Assembly (NCBI RefSeq): GCF_030384885.1
Contig: NZ_CP128613.1
DNA from: Escherichia coli
GTDB lineage: Bacteria; Pseudomonadota; Gammaproteobacteria; Enterobacterales; Enterobacteriaceae
DNA length: 64,000 nt
Reading direction: 5' to 3' (one strand)
The notes below the pieces were generated by a model, which was not told the DNA's origin, searched no databases, and saw only the letters and a program-made list of their open reading frames with translations. Shown one piece after another: positions 1,408 through 51,599 of the stretch. The translations under genes and the position numbers were made by a program. Each line of letters begins with the position of its first letter. The first letter of the stretch is position 1.

Positions 1408-2480
1408 CCTATGCCTATTGGTCACTAGAATTAGAAGACATGATCAGTACAGATGACGCCTATGTTACGGGGAATGCTGATCCAATTTCTGCACAAGTCT
1501 CAGGCAGTGTCACTGTCGTTAATCATAAAGATACGAACTTTGTTCGACAGGGCGACATTTTAGTTTCACTGGATAAAACTGATGCTACGATTGCACTCAA
1601 TAAAGCTAAAAATAATCTGGCAAATATTGTGCGACAAACGAATAAACTATACTTACAGGATAAACAATACAGTGCCGAAGTCGCTTCAGCACGTATCCAG
1701 TATCAACAATCTTTAGAAGATTATAATCGTCGTGTGCCGCTAGCAAAGCAGGGGGTTATTTCAAAAGAAACGCTGGAGCACACCAAAGATACGTTAATAA
1801 GTAGCAAAGCGGCATTGAATGCAGCTATTCAGGCTTATAAAGCGAACAAAGCCTTAGTAATGAACACACCATTAAATCGCCAGCCACAAGTTGTTGAAGC
1901 TGCGGATGCAACCAAAGAAGCCTGGTTAGCGCTTAAGCGTACGGATATTAAGAGTCCGGTTACTGGTTATATTGCCCAGCGAAGTGTGCAGGTTGGCGAA
2001 ACAGTGAGTCCTGGACAATCGTTAATGGCTGTCGTACCGGCACGTCAAATGTGGGTTAATGCCAACTTTAAAGAAACACAACTCACGGATGTACGGATTG
2101 GTCAATCGGTTAATATAATCAGCGATCTTTATGGTGAAAATGTTGTGTTTCATGGTCGGGTGACAGGGATCAATATGGGAACCGGCAATGCGTTCTCCTT
2201 ATTACCTGCACAAAATGCGACGGGGAACTGGATCAAAATCGTTCAGCGTGTACCTGTTGAGGTGTCTCTGGATCCAAAAGAACTCATGGAACATCCCTTG
2301 CGCATTGGTTTATCGATGACTGCAACCATTGATACCAGGAACGAAGACATTGCCGATATGCCTGATCTGGCTTCATCCGTGACGTCCATGCCTGCTTACA
2401 CCAGTAAGGCCTTAGTTATCGATACCAGTCCGATAGAAAAAGAGATTAACAACATTATTTCTCATAATGGACAACTTTAA
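1403..2480 (+). pseudogene. emrK: emrK 3' portion (EmrA-family membrane fusion protein), separated from its promoter and first ~35 codons by IS2
   Basis: ORF track 1440..2480 (346 aa) is EmrA/EmrK-like; frame is open back to the IS2 junction at 1403. Confidence 0.85.
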
Positions 2481-4018
2481 TGGCAATCACTAAATCAACT
2501 CCGGCACCATTAACCGGTGGGACGTTATGGTGCGTCACTATTGCGTTGTCATTAGCGACGTTTATGCAAATGTTGGACTCCACTATTTCTAACGTCGCAA
2601 TACCCACAATATCTGGCTTTCTCGGAGCATCAACGGACGAAGGCACATGGGTTATCACATCGTTTGGCGTAGCAAATGCCATTGCGATCCCTGTTACCGG
2701 CAGGCTGGCACAAAGAATAGGCGAATTAAGGTTATTTTTACTATCAGTAACCTTCTTTTCGCTGTCTTCATTAATGTGTAGTCTTTCGACTAATCTTGAT
2801 GTTCTTATATTTTTTAGAGTCGTCCAGGGATTAATGGCGGGGCCGTTAATTCCATTGTCACAGAGTTTATTATTAAGGAATTATCCGCCAGAAAAAAGAA
2901 CATTTGCTTTGGCGTTATGGTCAATGACCGTAATTATCGCTCCGATTTGTGGGCCGATATTGGGTGGCTATATTTGTGATAACTTTAGTTGGGGATGGAT
3001 ATTTTTAATCAATGTCCCTATGGGGATTATCGTCCTGACATTATGTTTAACTTTACTTAAAGGAAGAGAAACTGAAACTTCACCGGTCAAAATGAATTTA
3101 CCAGGGTTGACCCTGTTAGTGCTCGGTGTTGGTGGCTTGCAAATTATGCTTGATAAAGGGCGCGATCTGGATTGGTTCAACTCGAGTACAATAATAATAT
3201 TAACAGTAGTATCAGCTATTTCTCTGATCTCTTTAGTCATTTGGGAGTCGACCTCAGAGAACCCGATTCTTGACCTCAGTTTGTTTAAGTCCCGTAATTT
3301 CACCATTGGTATTGTGAGTATCACCTGCGCGTATTTATTTTACTCTGGAGCGATAGTACTTATGCCGCAGTTACTCCAGGAAACGATGGGGTATAATGCG
3401 ATATGGGCCGGACTTGCTTATGCGCCCATCGGCATCATGCCACTATTGATTTCGCCTTTGATAGGACGTTATGGCAACAAAATAGACATGCGGGTGTTAG
3501 TGACATTTAGTTTTTTGATGTATGCGGTTTGCTATTACTGGCGTTCTGTGACATTTATGCCAACGATTGATTTCACAGGCATCATTTTGCCACAGTTTTT
3601 CCAGGGATTCGCCGTTGCCTGTTTCTTTTTACCCTTAACAACGATTTCGTTTTCAGGGTTGCCAGATAATAAATTTGCCAATGCCTCGAGTATGAGTAAT
3701 TTTTTTCGTACCCTGTCAGGATCAGTTGGTACGTCGTTGACAATGACGTTGTGGGGACGACGCGAATCGTTACACCATAGTCAGTTGACAGCAACCATCG
3801 ATCAATTTAACCCCGTGTTTAATTCATCATCACAAATTATGGATAAATACTATGGTTCGCTTTCAGAGGTTCTTAATGAAATTAATAATGAAATAACTCA
3901 GCAGTCACTTTCAATTTCTGCAAATGAGATTTTCCGTATGGCGGCTATTGCTTTTATCTTACTTACGGTATTGGTTTGGTTTGCGAAACCGCCGTTTACA
4001 GCGAAAGGTGTTGGGTGA
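2480..4018 (+). CDS. emrY: MFS multidrug efflux transporter EmrY (EmrB paralogue)
   Basis: 512-aa 14-TM MFS protein; start overlaps emrK stop (TAATG). Confidence 0.93.
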   Translation: MAITKSTPAPLTGGTLWCVTIALSLATFMQMLDSTISNVAIPTISGFLGASTDEGTWVITSFGVANAIAIPVTGRLAQRIGELRLFLLSVTFFSLSSLMCSLSTNLDVLIFFRVVQGLMAGPLIPLSQSLLLRNYPPEKRTFALALWSMTVIIAPICGPILGGYICDNFSWGWIFLINVPMGIIVLTLCLTLLKGRETETSPVKMNLPGLTLLVLGVGGLQIMLDKGRDLDWFNSSTIIILTVVSAISLISLVIWESTSENPILDLSLFKSRNFTIGIVSITCAYLFYSGAIVLMPQLLQETMGYNAIWAGLAYAPIGIMPLLISPLIGRYGNKIDMRVLVTFSFLMYAVCYYWRSVTFMPTIDFTGIILPQFFQGFAVACFFLPLTTISFSGLPDNKFANASSMSNFFRTLSGSVGTSLTMTLWGRRESLHHSQLTATIDQFNPVFNSSSQIMDKYYGSLSEVLNEINNEITQQSLSISANEIFRMAAIAFILLTVLVWFAKPPFTAKGVG

Positions 4019-4097
4019 TGGTAAAAAGAGGAGGCTAGAGCAGGCAAGTCCGCGGAATTTTGAACCTGTACCATCATTTTATATGGATATTATCAGG

Positions 4098-4134
4098 CAG
4101 CATCGCTCACCCAGGGAAAGGATGGCGATGCTGC
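4098..4134. terminator. 10-bp inverted repeat (GCAGCATCGC..GCGATGCTGC) between convergent emrY and dsdA
   Basis: Stem-loop seen in sequence; no clear U-run, so terminator function is uncertain. Confidence 0.3.
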
Positions 4135-4146
4135 GGTGAAACGTTA

Positions 4147-5475
4147 TTAACGGCCTTTAGCCAGATATTGCTTCATCTCTTCTTCCGGCACCATTCCACC
4201 TCCTGTCGCCCACACCAGATGAGTGGCATTACGCAGTTGTTCTGTGCTGAAACCTTGCATCTGTTGGTAAATTACTGATGCGCACACGCGCTGAGGCCCG
4301 GCCATACCCGCCAGTGCTGAAGGCTCAAGACGAATGTCTTCTTCCTGCGCCAGCCAGCCAAGCATGTCATACATGGTTTGATCGCTAAGGGTATAGAAGC
4401 CATCCAGCAGACGCTCCATTGCCCGCCCGACAAAGCCTGATGCGCGACCAACTGCAAGGCCATCCGCGGCGGTAAGGTTGTCGATACCAATATCCTGAAC
4501 AGAAATCTGATCGTGTAATCCAGTATGGACGCCTAACAGCATACAAGGGGAGTGCGTGGGTTCGGCAAAAAAGCAGTGAACATGATCGCCAAACGCCAGT
4601 TTAAGCCCGAATGCGACGCCACCAGGACCACCGCCAACGCCACACGGCAGATAGACAAACAGAGGGTTATCAGCATCGACAATACGACCTTGCTCGGCAA
4701 ATTGCGCTTTAAGACGCTGGCCTGCGACGGAATACCCAAGGAACAACGTGCGGGAATTCTCGTCATCAATAAAGAAACAGTTCGGGTCAGACTGCGCTGC
4801 TTTACGTCCTTCCTCGACGGCAACCCCATAATCTTGCTCATATTCCACGACCGTAACGCCATGGCTGCGCAGTTTCGCTTTTTTCCATGCCCGGGCATCA
4901 GCAGACATATGTACTGTCACCTTAAAGCCAATGCGGGCGCTCATAATACCGATTGATAACCCCAGATTTCCGGTTGAGCCCACAGCAATGCTGTATTGGC
5001 TAAAGAACTGCTTAAACTCCGGAGAAAGCAGTTTGCTGTAGTCATCTTCAAGCGTCAGCAACCCTGCTTCCAGAGCCAGTTTTTCTGCATGTGCCAGGAC
5101 TTCATAAATCCCGCCGCGTGCTTTTATGGAGCCGGAAATAGGCAAATGGCTATCTTTTTTCAGTAACAGTTGCCCGCTGATCGGTTGCTGATATTCCTTT
5201 TCCAGCCGTTTTTGCATAGCCGGAATGGCAACCAGTTCTGATTCAATAATCCCTCCAGAGGCAGCCGTTTCAGGAAATGCTTTTGCCAGATAGGGGGCAA
5301 AACGAGATAAGCGCGCATGGGCGTCCTGAACATCCTGTTCGGTCAGGCCAACATAAGGTAAACCTTCAGCCAATGAGGTCGTGCCAGGATTGAACCAGGT
5401 GGTTTCTTTAAGAGCAACCAGATCCTTTACCAACGGATACTGGGCGATGAGCGAGTTCATTTTAGCGTTTTCCAT
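4147..5475 (-). CDS. dsdA: D-serine ammonia-lyase (D-serine dehydratase), PLP-dependent
   Basis: 442-aa ORF recognised as DsdA. Confidence 0.95.
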
Positions 5476-5675
5476 AGTATGTCTCTTTGCGCTTCGATGA
5501 TAAATGACAGCAGGAATGTGCCCGCCAGAGCGACGACTGAAGCGATAAATGTCGCTGTCGTATAGTATTTATATGTTTCACTGAGCGTAGCGCCGCAAAA
5601 TTGTTTCATCAGCCAGAAAAACGAGTCCGTAACGATCGTGCAGCCAATCGCAATAATTTCCGGGCTGATGTCTGG
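5457..5675 (-). pseudogene. dsdX: 3' remnant of dsdX (GntP-family D-serine transporter), about 72 codons
   Basis: Minus-strand frame translates ..[45 protein letters not shown].., typical GntP-family C-terminus; the frame is closed by stops upstream of about 5675; exact 3' end and overlap with dsdA start uncertain. Confidence 0.55.
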
Positions 5676-5931
5676 TTACAGCCACAGCACAATGATCCAT
5701 ATTTATATTTTTTCTCCGGGTGGGTGATGCCAGTCGGCATGTTTTACCTACTTGTCTGCATGGTGACTCGTTGGCGAGAACAGAGGCGGAATTGGTTACA
5801 ATTGTCCGGGAATTCTTGTTATTTTTTACTGTATTGTCGTGTCGGGTGATAGGACGTTAAGAATATCGCTGGATCTCGCCAGTGACGTCTGTTTCTGCTA
5901 CAGTGCCCGTTTTACGGCAAACGGCTTGGGT

Positions 5932-6927
5932 ATGGCTTCATTAAAGGATGTCGCACGCCTGGCGGGAGTGTCGATGATGACTGTCTCCCGGGTGATGCAT
6001 AATGCAGAATCTGTGCGTCCTGCAACGCGTGACCGCGTATTGCAGGCAATCCAAACCCTGAATTATGTTCCTGATCTTTCCGCTCGTAAGATGCGCGCTC
6101 AGGGACGTAAGCCGTCGACTCTCGCCGTGCTGGCGCAGGATACTGCTACCACTCCTTTCTCTGTTGATATTCTGCTTGCCATTGAACAAACCGCCAGCGA
6201 GTTTGGCTGGAATAGTTTTTTAATCAATATTTTTTCTGAAGATGACGCTGCCCGCGCGGCACGTCAGCTGCTTGCCCTCCGTCCGGATGGCATTATCTAT
6301 ACTACAATGGGACTGAGGCATATCACGCTGCCTGAGTCTCTGCATGGTGAAAATATTGTATTGGCGAACTGTGTGGCGGATGACCCAGCGTTACCCAGTT
6401 ATATCCCTGATGATTACACTGCCCAATATGAAGCAACACAGCATTTGCTCGCGGCGGGCTATCGTCAACCGTTATGCTTCTGGCTACCGGAAGGTGCGTT
6501 GGCAACAGGGTATCGTCGGCAGGGATTTGAGCAGGCCTGGCGTGATGCTGGACGAGATCTGGCTGAGGTGAAACAATTTCACATGGCCATAGGTGATGAT
6601 CACTACACCGATCTCGCAAGTATACTCAATGCCCACTTCCAGTCTGTAAAACCAGATTTTGATGTTCTGATTTGTGGTAACGATCGCGCAGCCTTTGTTG
6701 CTTATCAGGTTCTTCTGGCGAAGGGGGTACGTATCCCGCAGGATGTCGCCGTAATGGGCTTTGATAATCTGGTTGGCGTCGGGCATCTGTTTTTACCGCC
6801 GCTGACCACAATTCAGCTTCCACATGACATTATCGGGCGGGAAGCTGCATTGCATATTATTGAAGGTCGTGAAGGGGGAAGGGTAACGCAGATCCCTTGC
6901 CCGCTGTTGATCCGTTGTTCCACCTGA
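5932..6927 (+). CDS. cscR: LacI-family repressor of sucrose genes, CscR
   Basis: 331 aa from MASLKDVARLAGVSMMTVSRV (HTH) with periplasmic-binding-fold body; the ORF-track start at 5839 is probably an upstream extension. Confidence 0.9.
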   Translation: MASLKDVARLAGVSMMTVSRVMHNAESVRPATRDRVLQAIQTLNYVPDLSARKMRAQGRKPSTLAVLAQDTATTPFSVDILLAIEQTASEFGWNSFLINIFSEDDAARAARQLLALRPDGIIYTTMGLRHITLPESLHGENIVLANCVADDPALPSYIPDDYTAQYEATQHLLAAGYRQPLCFWLPEGALATGYRRQGFEQAWRDAGRDLAEVKQFHMAIGDDHYTDLASILNAHFQSVKPDFDVLICGNDRAAFVAYQVLLAKGVRIPQDVAVMGFDNLVGVGHLFLPPLTTIQLPHDIIGREAALHIIEGREGGRVTQIPCPLLIRCST

Positions 6928-6934
6928 TATTATG

Positions 6935-8368
6935 TTACCCCAGTTGCCAGAGTGCTCCATGTTGCAGCACGCCCACTCCGTGGGCGGCATAGAGCGACAG
7001 TTCCCGTTCTTCTGGCTGCGGATAGATTCGGCTACTCATCACAGCTTCCCCGTCGTTAATAAATACTTCCACGGATGATGTATCGATAAATATCCTTAGG
7101 GCGAGCGTGTCACGCTGCGGGAGGGGAATACTACGGTAACCATCTAAATTCTCGTGTGGGTAATACCGCCACAAAACAAGTCGCTCAGATTGGTTATCAA
7201 TATACAGCCGCATTCCCGTGCCGAGCTGTAATCCGTAATGTTCGGCATCGCTGTTCTTCAGAGCCCACTGCAACTGAATCTCAACCGCTTGCGCGTTTTC
7301 CTGCAAAACATATTTGTTGCTGATTGTGTGGGGAGAGATTGATTGATGCTGCTGGCGTAACGACTCAGCTTCGTGTACCGGGCGTTGTAGGAGTTTGCCA
7401 TTGCTCTCAGATAGCTCGCGCGCCAGCGTCATGCAGCCTGCCCAGCCTTCACGTTTTGAGGGCATTGGCGATTCCCACATATCCATCCAGCCGATAACAA
7501 TACGCCGACCATCCTTCGCTAAAAAGCTTTGTGGTGCATAAAAGTCATGCCCATAATCAAGTTCAGTAAAATGCCCGGATTGTGCAAAAAGTCGTCCTGG
7601 CGACCATATTCCGGGTATTACACCACTTTGAAAGCGATTTCGATAATTGTATCCCTCGGCATTCATTCCCTGCGGGGAAAACATCAGATAATGTTGATCG
7701 CCAAGGCTGAAAAAGTCCGGACATTCCCACATATAGCTTTCACCCGCATCAGCGTGGGCCAGTACGCGATCGAAAGTCCATTCACGCAATGAACTACCGC
7801 GATAAAGCAGGATCTGTCCCGTGTTGCCTGGGTCTTTCGCCCCGACTACCATCCACCAGGTGTCGGCTTCACGCCACACTTTAGGATCGCGGAAGTGCAT
7901 GATTCCTTCTGGTGGAGTGAGGATCACACCTTGTTTCTCGAAATGAATACCATCCCGGCTGGTAGCCAGACATTGTACTTCACGAATTGCATCGTCATTA
8001 CCTGCACCATCGAGCCAGACGTGGCCGGTGTAGATAAGTGAGAGGACACCATTGTCATCAACAGCACTACCTGAAAAACACCCGTCTTTGTCATTCTCGT
8101 CTCCTGGCGCTAGCGCAATAGGCTCGTGCTGCCAGTGGATCATATCGTCGCTGGTGGCATGTCCCCAGTGCATTGGCCCCCAGTGTTCGCTCATCGGGTG
8201 ATGCTGATAAAACGCGTGATAACGATTGTTAAACCAGATCAGGCCGTTTGGATCGTTCATCCACCCGGCTGGAGGCGCGAGGTGAAAATGGGGATAAAAA
8301 GTATTCCCCCGGCGCTCGTGAAGTTTTGCTAGTGCGTTTTGCGCCGCATGCAATCGAGATTGCGTCAT
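6935..8368 (-). CDS. cscA: Sucrose-6-phosphate hydrolase / invertase (GH32), CscA
   Basis: GH32 motifs WMNDPNG, FRDP, EC present; start taken at MTQSRLHAAQ (477 aa). Confidence 0.92.
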   Translation of the reverse strand: MTQSRLHAAQNALAKLHERRGNTFYPHFHLAPPAGWMNDPNGLIWFNNRYHAFYQHHPMSEHWGPMHWGHATSDDMIHWQHEPIALAPGDENDKDGCFSGSAVDDNGVLSLIYTGHVWLDGAGNDDAIREVQCLATSRDGIHFEKQGVILTPPEGIMHFRDPKVWREADTWWMVVGAKDPGNTGQILLYRGSSLREWTFDRVLAHADAGESYMWECPDFFSLGDQHYLMFSPQGMNAEGYNYRNRFQSGVIPGIWSPGRLFAQSGHFTELDYGHDFYAPQSFLAKDGRRIVIGWMDMWESPMPSKREGWAGCMTLARELSESNGKLLQRPVHEAESLRQQHQSISPHTISNKYVLQENAQAVEIQLQWALKNSDAEHYGLQLGTGMRLYIDNQSERLVLWRYYPHENLDGYRSIPLPQRDTLALRIFIDTSSVEVFINDGEAVMSSRIYPQPEERELSLYAAHGVGVLQHGALWQLG

Positions 8369-8402
8369 TTTAATCATCCTGGTTAAGCAAATTTGGTGAA
8401 TT

Positions 8403-8414
8403 GTTAACGTTAAC
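8403..8414. promoter_or_regulatory. Palindrome GTTAACGTTAAC, copy 1 (candidate LacI-family/CscR operator)
   Basis: Perfect 12-bp palindrome with central CG in cscA-cscK divergent region. Confidence 0.4.
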
Positions 8415-8447
8415 TTTTATAAAAATAAAGCCCCTTATCTTTATAAA

Positions 8448-8463
8448 TGTGATTAATATCACA
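8448..8463. promoter_or_regulatory. CRP (cAMP receptor protein) binding site TGTGATTAATATCACA
   Basis: Perfect match to both CRP half-sites TGTGA-N6-TCACA. Confidence 0.55.
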
Positions 8464-8466
8464 AAT

Positions 8467-8478
8467 GTTAACGTTAAC
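8467..8478. promoter_or_regulatory. Palindrome GTTAACGTTAAC, copy 2 (candidate CscR operator)
   Basis: Second identical 12-bp palindrome 64 bp from the first. Confidence 0.4.
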
Positions 8479-8583
8479 TATGACGTTTTGTGATCGAATG
8501 TGCATGTTTTAGTAAATCCATGACGATTTTGCGAAAAAGAGGTTTATCACTATGCGTAAGTCAGATGAATTTGAGGGAAAAAA

Positions 8584-9498
8584 ATGTCAGCCAAAGTATG
8601 GGTTTTAGGGGATGCGGTTGTCGATCTCTTGCCTGAATCAGACGGGCGCCTACTGCCTTGTCCTGGCGGCGCGCCAGCTAACGTTGCGGTGGGAATCGCC
8701 AGATTAGGCGGAATAAGTGGGTTTATAGGCCGGGTGGGTGATGATCCTTTTGGCGCGTTAATGCAAAGAACGCTGCTAACGGAGGGAGTCGATATCACGT
8801 ATCTGAAGCAGGATGAATGGCACCGAACATCCACGGTGCTTGTCGATCTGAACGATCAGGGGGAACGTTCATTTACGTTTATGGTCCGCCCTAGTGCCGA
8901 TCTTTTTTTAGAGACGACTGACTTGCCCTTCTGGCGACATGGCGAATGGTTACATCTCTGTTCTATTGCGTTGTCTGCTGAACCTTCGCGTACCAGCGCA
9001 TTTACTGCGATGACGGCGATCCGGCATGCCGGAGGTTTTGTCAGCTTCGATCCCAATATTCGTGAAGATCTGTGGCAAGACGAGCATTTGCTCCGCTTGT
9101 GTTTGCGACAGGCGCTACAACTGGCGGATGTCGTCAAGCTCTCGGAAGAAGAATGGCGACTTATCAGCGGAAAAACACAGAACGATCGGGATATATGTGC
9201 TCTGGCAAAAGAGTATGAGATCGCCATGCTGTTGGTGACTAAAGGTGCAGAAGGGGTGGTGGTCTGTTATCGAGGACAAGTTCACCATTTTGCTGGAATG
9301 TCTGTGAATTGTGTCGATAGCACGGGGGCGGGAGATGCGTTCGTTGCCGGGTTACTCACAGGTCTTTCCTCTACGGGATTAGAGACCGATGAGAGAGAAA
9401 TGCGACGAATTATCGATCTCGCTCAACGTTGCGGAGCGCTTGCAGTAACGGCGAAAGGGGCAATGACAGCGCTGCCATGTCGACAAGATCTGGAATAG
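8584..9498 (+). CDS. cscK: Fructokinase (PfkB/ribokinase family), CscK
   Basis: 304-aa sugar-kinase ORF with GAGD motif region. Confidence 0.9.
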   Translation: MSAKVWVLGDAVVDLLPESDGRLLPCPGGAPANVAVGIARLGGISGFIGRVGDDPFGALMQRTLLTEGVDITYLKQDEWHRTSTVLVDLNDQGERSFTFMVRPSADLFLETTDLPFWRHGEWLHLCSIALSAEPSRTSAFTAMTAIRHAGGFVSFDPNIREDLWQDEHLLRLCLRQALQLADVVKLSEEEWRLISGKTQNDRDICALAKEYEIAMLLVTKGAEGVVVCYRGQVHHFAGMSVNCVDSTGAGDAFVAGLLTGLSSTGLETDEREMRRIIDLAQRCGALAVTAKGAMTALPCRQDLE

Positions 9499-9569
9499 TG
9501 AGAAATAAACGGCGAGGCCGTTCTTGTCTCTGAATAGGACGTGAATATTTTAACGACAGGCAGGTAATT

Positions 9570-37497: not shown

Positions 37498-39671
<2,174 letters not shown>

Positions 39672-48979: not shown

Positions 48980-49549
48980 ATGAAACGACTTATTGTGGGC
49001 ATCAGCGGTGCCAGCGGTGCGATTTATGGCGTGCGTTTATTACAGGTTCTGCGTGATGTCGCAGATGTTGAAACGCATCTGGTAATGAGCCAGGCCGCGC
49101 GCCAGACCTTATCTCTTGAAACGGATTTTTCCCTGCGCGAAGTGCAGGCGTTAGCTGATGTGACGCACGATGCGCGCGATATTGCCGCCACCATCTCTTC
49201 TGGTTCTTTCCAGACGTTGGGGATGGTGATTTTACCCTGTTCAATCAAAACCCTGTCCGGCATTGTGCATAGCTATACGGATAGCTTACTGACCCGTGCG
49301 GCAGATGTGGTGCTGAAAGAGCGTCGCCCGCTGGTGCTCTGCGTGCGTGAAACACCGTTGCACTTAGGCCACCTGCGTTTAATGACTCAGGCGGCAGAAA
49401 TCGGTGCGGTAATTATGCCTCCCGTTCCGGCATTTTATCATCGCCCACAATCCCTTGATGATGTGATAAATCAGACGGTTAACCGTGTACTCGATCAATT
49501 CGCCATAACGCTTCCTGAAGATCTCTTTGCCCGCTGGCAGGGCGCATAA
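48980..49549 (+). CDS. ubiX: Flavin prenyltransferase UbiX
   Basis: 189 aa. Confidence 0.95.
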   Translation: MKRLIVGISGASGAIYGVRLLQVLRDVADVETHLVMSQAARQTLSLETDFSLREVQALADVTHDARDIAATISSGSFQTLGMVILPCSIKTLSGIVHSYTDSLLTRAADVVLKERRPLVLCVRETPLHLGHLRLMTQAAEIGAVIMPPVPAFYHRPQSLDDVINQTVNRVLDQFAITLPEDLFARWQGA

Positions 49550-49730
49550 CCTCATTGTTGCCCTGTTTCAGGGCAATTTTGCAACCGCGATCAAATCCTC
49601 AACATTTTGTTTCTGCCATTCAATCGAAACGCTGCGATTCAACCGCTATACCTGCTATCTTCAACTTCAGGACAATAATGCAACGTCTTGTTAACATATT
49701 TAACGTTGAATGTTACTGTTGTCGTCAAGA

Positions 49731-49746
49731 TGGCATAAGACCTGCA
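49731..49746 (+). promoter_or_regulatory. Sigma54-type promoter upstream of argT
   Basis: TGGCAT-AAGAC-CTGCA fits -24 GG / -12 GC spacing. Confidence 0.55.
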
Positions 49747-49814
49747 TGAACGAGCCTGCAAACACACAACACAATACACAACATAAAAAAAGCCATTTCA
49801 CTTGAGGGTTATGT

Positions 49815-50597
49815 ATGAAGAAGTCGATTCTCGCTCTGTCTTTGTTAGTCGGGATTTCTGCAGCAGCTTCCAGCTACGCGGCGCTGCCGGAGACGGTACG
49901 TATCGGAACGGATACCACCTATGCACCGTTCTCATCGAAAGATGCCAAAGGTGACTTTGTTGGCTTTGATATCGATCTCGGTAACGAGATGTGCAAACGG
50001 ATGCAGGTGAAATGTACCTGGGTTGCCAGTGACTTTGACGCGCTGATCCCCTCACTGAAAGCGAAAAAGATCGACGCCATTATTTCGTCGCTCTCCATTA
50101 CGGATAAACGTCAGCAGGAGATTGCCTTCTCCGACAAACTGTACGCCGCAGACTCTCGTCTGATTGCTGCCAAAGGTTCACCGATTCAGCCAACGCTGGA
50201 TTCACTGAAAGGTAAACATGTTGGTGTGCTGCAGGGATCAACCCAGGAAGCGTATGCCAATGATAACTGGCGTAGCAAAGGCGTGGATGTGGTGGCCTAT
50301 GCTAACCAGGATTTGGTCTATTCCGATCTGGCTGCGGGACGCCTGGATGCCGCTCTGCAAGATGAGGTTGCTGCCAGCGAAGGTTTCCTCAAGCAACCTG
50401 CCGGTAAAGATTTCGCTTTTGCAGGCCCTTCAGTGAAAGACAAAAAATACTTCGGTGACGGCACCGGTGTCGGGCTACGTAAAGATGATGCTGAACTGAC
50501 GGCTGCGTTTAATAAGGCGCTTGGCGAGCTGCGTCAGGACGGTACCTACGACAAGATGGCGAAAAAGTATTTCGACTTTAATGTCTACGGTGACTGA
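49815..50597 (+). CDS. argT: Lysine/arginine/ornithine periplasmic binding protein
   Basis: 260 aa. Confidence 0.95.
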
Positions 50598-50666
50598 TAC
50601 GTCGCAGGGAAGCTGTACCTGATGGAATGATCATCATGGTGCACGCCAGGTTGTTGCACTATCGTG

Positions 50667-50703
50667 GTGCATTAAAATGCATACTTAAGCATTTTTAATG
50701 AAA
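50667..50703. promoter_or_regulatory. Candidate tandem ARG boxes (ArgR) upstream of hisJ
   Basis: GTGCATTAAAATGCATAC / TAAGCATTTTTAATGAAA, two 18-bp AT-core palindromes; resemblance to ARG box consensus. Confidence 0.45.
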
Positions 50704-50816
50704 AATAATACGTCTAACGGGGCGGGATATTTTGCCTTGATGGTCAATTTTATGGCACGATAAGTGTAACAAACCTGTAAATATTCCCTATAAAAAGACT
50801 GTCAGTTGAGGACATT

Positions 50817-51599
50817 ATGAAAAAACTGGTGCTATCGCTCTCTCTGGTTCTGGCCTTCTCCAGCGCAACGGCGGCGTTTGCTGCGATTCCGCAAAACATC
50901 CGCATCGGTACCGATCCGACCTATGCGCCATTTGAATCAAAAAATTCACAAGGTGAACTGGTTGGCTTCGACATCGATCTGGCGAAGGAGTTGTGCAAAC
51001 GCATCAATACGCAATGTACGTTTGTCGAAAACCCACTGGATGCGTTAATCCCATCCTTAAAAGCGAAGAAGATTGACGCCATCATGTCATCGCTTTCCAT
51101 TACGGAAAAACGTCAGCAAGAAATAGCCTTCACCGACAAACTGTACGCTGCCGACTCTCGTCTGGTAGTGGCGAAAAATTCCGACATTCAGCCGACAGTC
51201 GAGTCGCTGAAAGGCAAGCGCGTAGGCGTATTGCAGGGCACCACCCAGGAGACGTTCGGTAACGAACACTGGGCACCAAAAGGCATTGAAATCGTCTCTT
51301 ATCAGGGGCAGGACAACATTTATTCTGACCTGACTGCCGGACGTATTGATGCCGCATTCCAGGATGAGGTCGCCGCCAGCGAAGGTTTCCTCAAACAACC
51401 CGTTGGTAAAGATTACAAATTCGGTGGCCCGTCTGTTAAAGATGAAAAACTGTTTGGCGTAGGTACCGGCATGGGTCTGCGTAAAGAAGATAACGAATTG
51501 CGCGAGGCACTGAACAAAGCCTTTGCCGAAATGCGCGCTGACGGTACTTACGAGAAATTAGCGAAAAAGTACTTCGATTTTGATGTTTATGGTGGTTAA
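50817..51599 (+). CDS. hisJ: Histidine periplasmic binding protein
   Basis: 260 aa. Confidence 0.95.

Follow-up and report, generated by a model that had tools for sequence, protein, structure and literature searches.

A -24/-12 element upstream of argT as the probable NtrC-activated sigma-54 promoter of the gene in a divergent Escherichia coli lineage

Our analysis covered a 64-kb stretch of Escherichia coli DNA (the window), in which ubiX and argT are separated by a spacer of 265 bp (49550-49814). Apart from the -24/-12 element that is our main subject, this spacer holds a terminator hairpin, several conserved blocks and a candidate sigma-70 promoter, and an NtrC site together with a second sigma-54-like element follows in the spacer between argT and hisJ (Table 1).

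Table 1. Genes, promoter elements and conserved blocks of the ubiX-argT-hisJ region, in window coordinates.
Feature	Position	Strand	Remarks
ubiX	48980-49549	+	From the open reading frame map and the annotation of the 100% identical genome 2013C-4282
ubiX intrinsic terminator	49557-49580	+	Stem TTGCCCTG / CAGGGCAA, TTT loop, then TTTT
Conserved block TTTTGCAACCGCGATCAAATCCTCAACATTTT	49577-49608	.	-180 to -149 from the predicted +1
Conserved block CTGCTATCTT	49652-49661		Upstream of argT
Conserved block TGCAAC-N6-TTAACATATTTAACG	49679-49704	.	-78 to -53 from the predicted +1
Candidate overlapping sigma-70 promoter	49691-49719	+	Hexamers read from the sequence; start near 49725
Sigma-54 (-24/-12) core promoter of argT	49731-49746	+	Reads TGGCATAAGACCTGCA, TGGCAT-AAGAC-CTGCA
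Predicted sigma-54 transcript leader	49757-49814	+	58 nt; predicted +1 at about 49757
argT	49815-50597	+	Periplasmic binding protein for lysine, arginine and ornithine; target gene of the promoter
Near-consensus NtrC site TGCACTATCGTGGTGCA	50655-50671	.	Between argT and hisJ, at about +906 relative to the argT start
hisJ sigma-54-like element TGGCACGATAAGTGTA	50753-50768		49 bp before the hisJ ATG
hisJ	50817-51599	+	Followed by hisQMP (+); gene order ubiX, argT, hisJQMP

The preliminary description of this DNA had reported TGGCAT-N5-CTGCA with correct -24/-12 spacing about 70 bp upstream of the argT start, and we found it right on each of these points. The GG of the -24 half (49732-33) and the GC of the -12 half (49744-45) are 10 bases apart, which is the canonical sigma-54 spacing, and the argT ATG begins 69 bp 3' of the end of the motif. 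As the signature of a sigma-54 promoter we took GG and GC 10 bases apart within TGGCAC-N5-TTGCW, in sense orientation and at the distance of a leader from the gene. The argT element has this spacing and placement, deviates from the consensus at two bases (a T instead of C as the sixth base, and a C instead of T ahead of TGCA), and its consensus positions are under purifying selection (see below). Taking the C of the GC (49745) as position -12, we infer a start at 49757, and the rule of Bonocora (motif centre + 19) leads to the same base; we found no mapped sigma-54 start for E. coli argT in the literature examined. Both the motif and the predicted +1 are on the strand of argT and within the ubiX-argT spacer.

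Conservation of the element was assessed in 80 argT loci taken from one-genome-per-species contigs, with the ArgT protein as the query, so that the selection of loci was independent of the promoter. These loci represent the Enterobacteriaceae, including Escherichia, Salmonella, Citrobacter, Enterobacter, Klebsiella, Raoultella, Kosakonia, Pluralibacter, Franconibacter and Atlantibacter, among other genera. TGG[CT]A[CT]-N5-NTGC[AT] was present 66-105 bp 5' of argT in every one of them (80/80). When 81 distinct upstream regions were aligned with MAFFT, TGGCA and TGCA proved to be conserved to at least 95%, with a variable N5 and variable flanks, which is the footprint that would be expected of a functional -24/-12 element.

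Within E. coli, about 4,900 of 5,426 complete genomes have at least 95% identity to the window over 50 bp around the motif. Direct comparison with K-12 shows that the spacer is 98% identical and that 49691-49753, motif included, is identical base for base. The two differ only by four substitutions just past the ubiX stop and one in the conserved upstream block, by a G in place of A at 49690 and a C in place of A at -7, and by an A/T run whose position in the leader is shifted; the -24/-12 element is untouched by any of these. Because of this identity, results obtained in K-12 can be transferred to the window. Over the 265-bp spacer by itself, the identity between the window and most E. coli genomes is 95-99%, compared with 90-95% for the 551 bp from 49400 to 49950 (which add the 3' end of ubiX and the 5' end of argT, and which have a 100% match in one genome only, 2013C-4282), and therefore the non-coding spacer is better conserved in this lineage than the coding DNA on either side of it.

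What the window carries here is the sigma-54 promoter already described for argT, and its interpretation is not new either: binding by sigma-54, dependence on rpoN and interference with sigma-70 transcription have all been shown in K-12 or Salmonella on identical sequence. The 17-mer ATGGCATAAGACCTGCA is the intergenic sigma-54 ChIP-seq site OS22 of K-12 argT (b2310), with a fold-above-threshold score of 12 and a predicted start 58 nt before argT (Bonocora et al. 2015); EcoCyc, as of 2015, had it as a 'predicted' promoter, and this ChIP-seq study confirmed it. K-12 argTp (EcoCyc/RegulonDB) has the same 17-mer, predicted 58-nt leader and flanking genes as the window, and the identity of the 17-mer supports the proposal, made earlier from the letters alone, that this is a sigma-54 promoter. 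The 18-mer TGGCATAAGACCTGCATG, also identical, is the sigma-54 site of Salmonella argT (STM2355) by ChIP-chip and microarray; argT was among four operons earlier shown to be sigma-54-dependent, its activator is NtrC, and with a constitutive activator supplied its expression was 3.5-fold higher in the wild type than in an rpoN deletion strain (Samuels et al. 2013).

Several other published observations concern the same promoter. Genomic SELEX with RpoN gave a peak within the ubiX-argT spacer, an argTp-lacZ fusion responded to the Ntr system with a 2.4-fold rise in a glnK mutant, nitrogen-starved E. coli upregulates argT and recruits RNA polymerase to it, and reviews place argT under NtrC. Metabolic engineers have employed argTp as a strong sigma-54, stationary-phase promoter. 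The argTp reporter fragment in PMC7045595, which reaches from the palindrome near ubiX to -1, one base before the predicted +1, drove strong expression, so the proximal region suffices for expression; this fragment also holds the sigma-70 promoter discussed below, to which its high activity could partly be due.

That palindrome, TGCCCTGTTTCAGGGCA (49559-49575), is perfect, has its centre at -190 relative to the predicted start and shows four mismatches to the NtrC consensus. It sits where Klebsiella, Raoultella and others have NtrC palindromes, 31 bp from a second position at -221. At the same time, it folds into a hairpin with a 9-bp stem (-17.7 kcal/mol, z = -2.1), and over 69 distinct sequences 88.5% of the cells are paired, compared with about 40% in slid controls, with compensatory changes at five of the eight pairs and G-U pairs tolerated. 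Taken together, fold and covariation identify the -190 palindrome as the intrinsic terminator of ubiX, with the hairpin, U-run and compensatory pairing of a Rho-independent terminator all found in the segment listed in Table 1. A simple terminator scan missed this hairpin because its T-run consists of only four Ts. The same terminator palindrome is present at -190 at the NtrC- and sigma-54-dependent argT promoter of Salmonella Typhimurium (argTr), the classic example, from the Ames laboratory, of a transport promoter under nitrogen control.

The preliminary description had also called the motif consistent with nitrogen-regulated, NtrC-dependent expression of argT. The published assignment to NtrC supports this, but direct occupancy by NtrC is weak and E. 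coli has no canonical NtrC site upstream of the gene. The textbook NtrC/sigma-54 promoters glnAp2 and glnHp2 have -24/-12 elements and are activated by phosphorylated NtrC upon nitrogen limitation, through paired enhancer sites about three helical turns apart. The -24/-12 element is shared by argT, and the argT orthologues of Enterobacter and Klebsiella also have paired sites, at -221 and -190. In contrast, the Escherichia argT spacer (49550-49814 in the window) has no match to the NtrC consensus TGCACC-N5-GGTGCA with three mismatches or fewer, and paired palindromes about 100-200 bp upstream, as expected in the NtrC regulon, were not found at argT in the window; the number of such consensus matches in the whole window is below chance.

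Across the orthologous loci, NtrC-type palindromes occupy constant positions, centred at -221, at -190 or at both relative to the predicted start, for example TGCACCTGCAGGGTGCA in Enterobacter cloacae and CGCACTATAGTGGTGCA together with TGCGCTGCGGTGGTGCA in Klebsiella pneumoniae. Enterobacter, Klebsiella, Raoultella and others carry sites at these positions, but Escherichia, Salmonella and most Citrobacter do not. The -221 position of Escherichia falls within ubiX, and its -190 position is the terminator palindrome. The only near-perfect NtrC site in the window, and the only strong one near the locus, is TGCACTATCGTGGTGCA, downstream of argT, with a GGTGCA half-site close to it (50638-50643); the orthologous loci keep this site, at about +860 to +950. 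NtrC ChIP-seq in K-12 gave a 23.7-fold peak labelled 'hisJQMP', which coincides with 50655-50671 when its coordinates are mapped onto the window. At argT the same study saw 5.4-fold, compared with 71-fold at glnA; this value is under the study's 9-fold cut-off and the peak was added by eye.

The weak peak at argT is consistent with degenerate sites, and we infer that NtrC in Escherichia probably binds weak, degenerate proximal sites, possibly aided by the strong sites 0.9 kb downstream. In Escherichia, Salmonella and most Citrobacter, argTp has apparently lost the canonical proximal NtrC enhancer that other Enterobacteriaceae retain. A more far-reaching proposal, which we regard as doubtful, is that the orphaned downstream enhancer loops to argTp or that the terminator palindrome also serves as a low-affinity NtrC site. 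If true, one enhancer would have been rewired between two tandem sigma-54 promoters, those of argT and hisJ.

The second of these would be the sigma-54-like element before hisJ, which lies about 100 bp downstream of the near-perfect NtrC site. TGGCAC[GA][AT]TA is conserved 63-69 bp ahead of hisJ in practically every locus with a locatable hisJ. Many Citrobacter have a canonical element there (TGGCACGATAACTGCA), and the Salmonella element (TGGCACGATAGCCGCA, ...GCCGCA) keeps its GC intact, whereas in all Escherichia, including the window, the element reads TGGCACGATAAGTGTA and the -12 GC has become GT. hisJ is absent from the main text of the K-12 sigma-54 ChIP-seq study (Bonocora et al. 2015). 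The element appears to be what is left in Escherichia of an ancestral NtrC/sigma-54 promoter for hisJ, decayed but with its strong NtrC enhancer surviving, and this enhancer would now have no obvious sigma-54 partner nearby.

A sigma-70 promoter has also been described at argT. In the study of Schaefer et al. (2015), the 17-mer spans +6 to +22 relative to a sigma-70 start and argT is grouped with the sigma-70-regulated promoters; argT expression with sigma-54 is 23% of the level without it, and sigma-54 inhibits the sigma-70 promoter in vitro. From the position of the 17-mer, the sigma-70 start in the window falls near 49725, and the hexamers that could serve it are a -35 TTAACA (49691-96) and, after a 17-bp spacer, an extended -10 TGtTACTGT (49711-19). 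These hexamers are identical in K-12, and the -10 is not conserved outside Escherichia; in Salmonella argTr the region between the TTAACA block and the -24 diverges, and the -10 TACTGT is absent. A sigma-70 consensus scan reported no promoter in the ubiX-argT spacer, and therefore the published sigma-70 promoter must be weak by consensus and our assignment of its hexamers is tentative. Competition between sigma-70 and sigma-54 holoenzymes on overlapping DNA is also seen at glmY and glmZ; there the two promoters overlap fully, whereas at argT they are arranged in tandem ('class II'), with the sigma-54 start about 32 bp downstream of the sigma-70 start.

The interference data imply that the -24/-12 element is also a brake when nitrogen is replete, and one might go further and see in it mainly a sigma-54 'roadblock' operator, with argT transcribed chiefly from the upstream sigma-70 promoter. 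The sigma-70-regulated class, the 23% expression, the in vitro inhibition and the weak NtrC ChIP signal at argT all fit this reading, but it does not sit well with the 3.5-fold effect of rpoN on Salmonella argT in the presence of a constitutive activator, nor with the place of argT in the NtrC regulon by expression and the recruitment of RNA polymerase upon nitrogen starvation. Moreover, the sigma-70 -10 is not conserved beyond Escherichia, whereas the -24/-12 element is kept in 80/80 loci. We consider a mainly inhibitory role highly improbable; the roadblock and promoter roles are compatible, not exclusive.

The exact motif pattern is expected 0.05 times per 64-kb window and the degenerate form TGGCAY-N5-YTGCW 0.45 times, and with a looser sigma-54 consensus (two mismatches) the count in the window was not above that in shuffles. 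We also scanned both strands with a sigma-54 matrix made from 19 published E. coli sites, argT excluded. The argT site is the top match of the 64 kb on either strand (16.15 bits; training range 14.3-21.0), and shuffled windows contained 0.27 matches scoring at least 16.15, so that the motif sequence by itself is modest evidence over 64 kb. The site gains its significance from its right orientation in the 265-bp spacer, where about 0.0006 sense-orientation matches would be expected by chance (arithmetic from the matrix scan), and from the equivalent element in all of the orthologous loci. Its published scores, 9.46 (Bonocora) and 16.2 (Samuels), are in the lower half of real sigma-54 sites. A functionless chance resemblance, which might be argued from the roughly 0.27-0.45 matches this good in a random 64-kb window, is refuted for practical purposes by conservation and ChIP, since the element is the top match of the window in the correct spacer and orientation, has its consensus positions kept in 80/80 loci with variable neighbours, and is bound by sigma-54 in vivo as an identical sequence in two species.

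We therefore read the element as argTp, the enhancer-dependent, NtrC-activated sigma-54 promoter from which argT and, through read-through, argT-hisJQMP are transcribed, with a probability of roughly 93%. On this reading, sigma-54 RNA polymerase would bind the GG (-24) and the GC (-12) of the core promoter as a closed complex, which upon nitrogen limitation would be remodelled by phosphorylated NtrC with ATP to start transcription near the predicted +1. The product would be an argT mRNA with a C/A-rich leader that the small RNA GcvB may repress. When nitrogen is plentiful, the inactive bound sigma-54 holoenzyme, just downstream of the weak sigma-70 promoter, would dampen that promoter, and the -24/-12 element would thus be both switch and brake.

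As a discovery this carries little weight, but it does indicate that a genuine sigma-54 promoter can be recognised from raw sequence, and that the argT promoter call holds in a divergent E. coli lineage as well. Arginine, lysine and ornithine are scavenged under the control of this promoter when nitrogen is limiting. Perhaps more useful, for work on the evolution of the Ntr regulon or for the reuse of argTp as a part, is the comparative picture: the NtrC positions at -221 and -190, the terminator palindrome at -190, the decayed -12 of hisJ and the invariant block from -180 to -149.

The leader of the predicted sigma-54 transcript contains a C/A-rich stretch, CAAACACACAACACAATACACAACATA, at about 49759-49786, followed by a Shine-Dalgarno sequence (GAGGG, 49804-49808). 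Its CA-richness is retained in the orthologues, and its length varies by genus via expansion of ACA/CAA repeats. argT is a verified target of the R1 seed of GcvB in Salmonella and a conserved target that is prominent in E. coli interactome data sets; the leader in the window, C/A-rich and 5' of the ribosome-binding site, appears to match this published class of R1 targets. An Rfam search of 49400-50900 at relaxed thresholds gave no match.

Other conserved blocks lie upstream of argT. The core of TTTTGCAACCGCGATCAAATCCTCAACATTTT, CGATCA[AT]ATCC (which includes GATC), is invariant across about 20 genera; TTTTGCAACCGCGATCAAATCCTCAACATTTT matched none of the regulator consensus sequences tried and is not NtrC-like, and neither it nor CTGCTATCTT could be linked to a regulator. 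The block TGCAAC-N6-TTAACATATTTAACG overlaps the sigma-70 -35 and an IHF-like site (49681-49693, minus strand, one mismatch), which is no evidence alone because the number of IHF-pattern matches over the window is no higher than chance. Control of argT by ArgR was considered and rejected: a search by eye gave isolated TGAAT/ATTCA half-matches only, and in the literature argT is not ArgR-regulated.

Elsewhere in the window, the sigma-54 matrix gave three intragenic matches in sense orientation: 9972-9988 (+, 15.2 bits) and 10036-10052 (+, 13.8 bits), both in the same gene for a LysR-family regulator, and 39409-39425 (-, 14.6 bits) in flk. They could be intragenic sigma-54 sites of the type described for K-12, or could have arisen by chance; Bonocora et al. 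(2015) do not mention flk in their main text. In the identical genome, the segment corresponding to 7600-11330 is annotated with a prophage remnant (torI, a pseudogene of intS and a truncated gene for dATP/dGTP pyrophosphohydrolase) that adjoins a tRNA-Arg gene (11252-11326), and by the same annotation a csc sucrose-utilisation cluster lies at about 2250-7140, beside dsdA.
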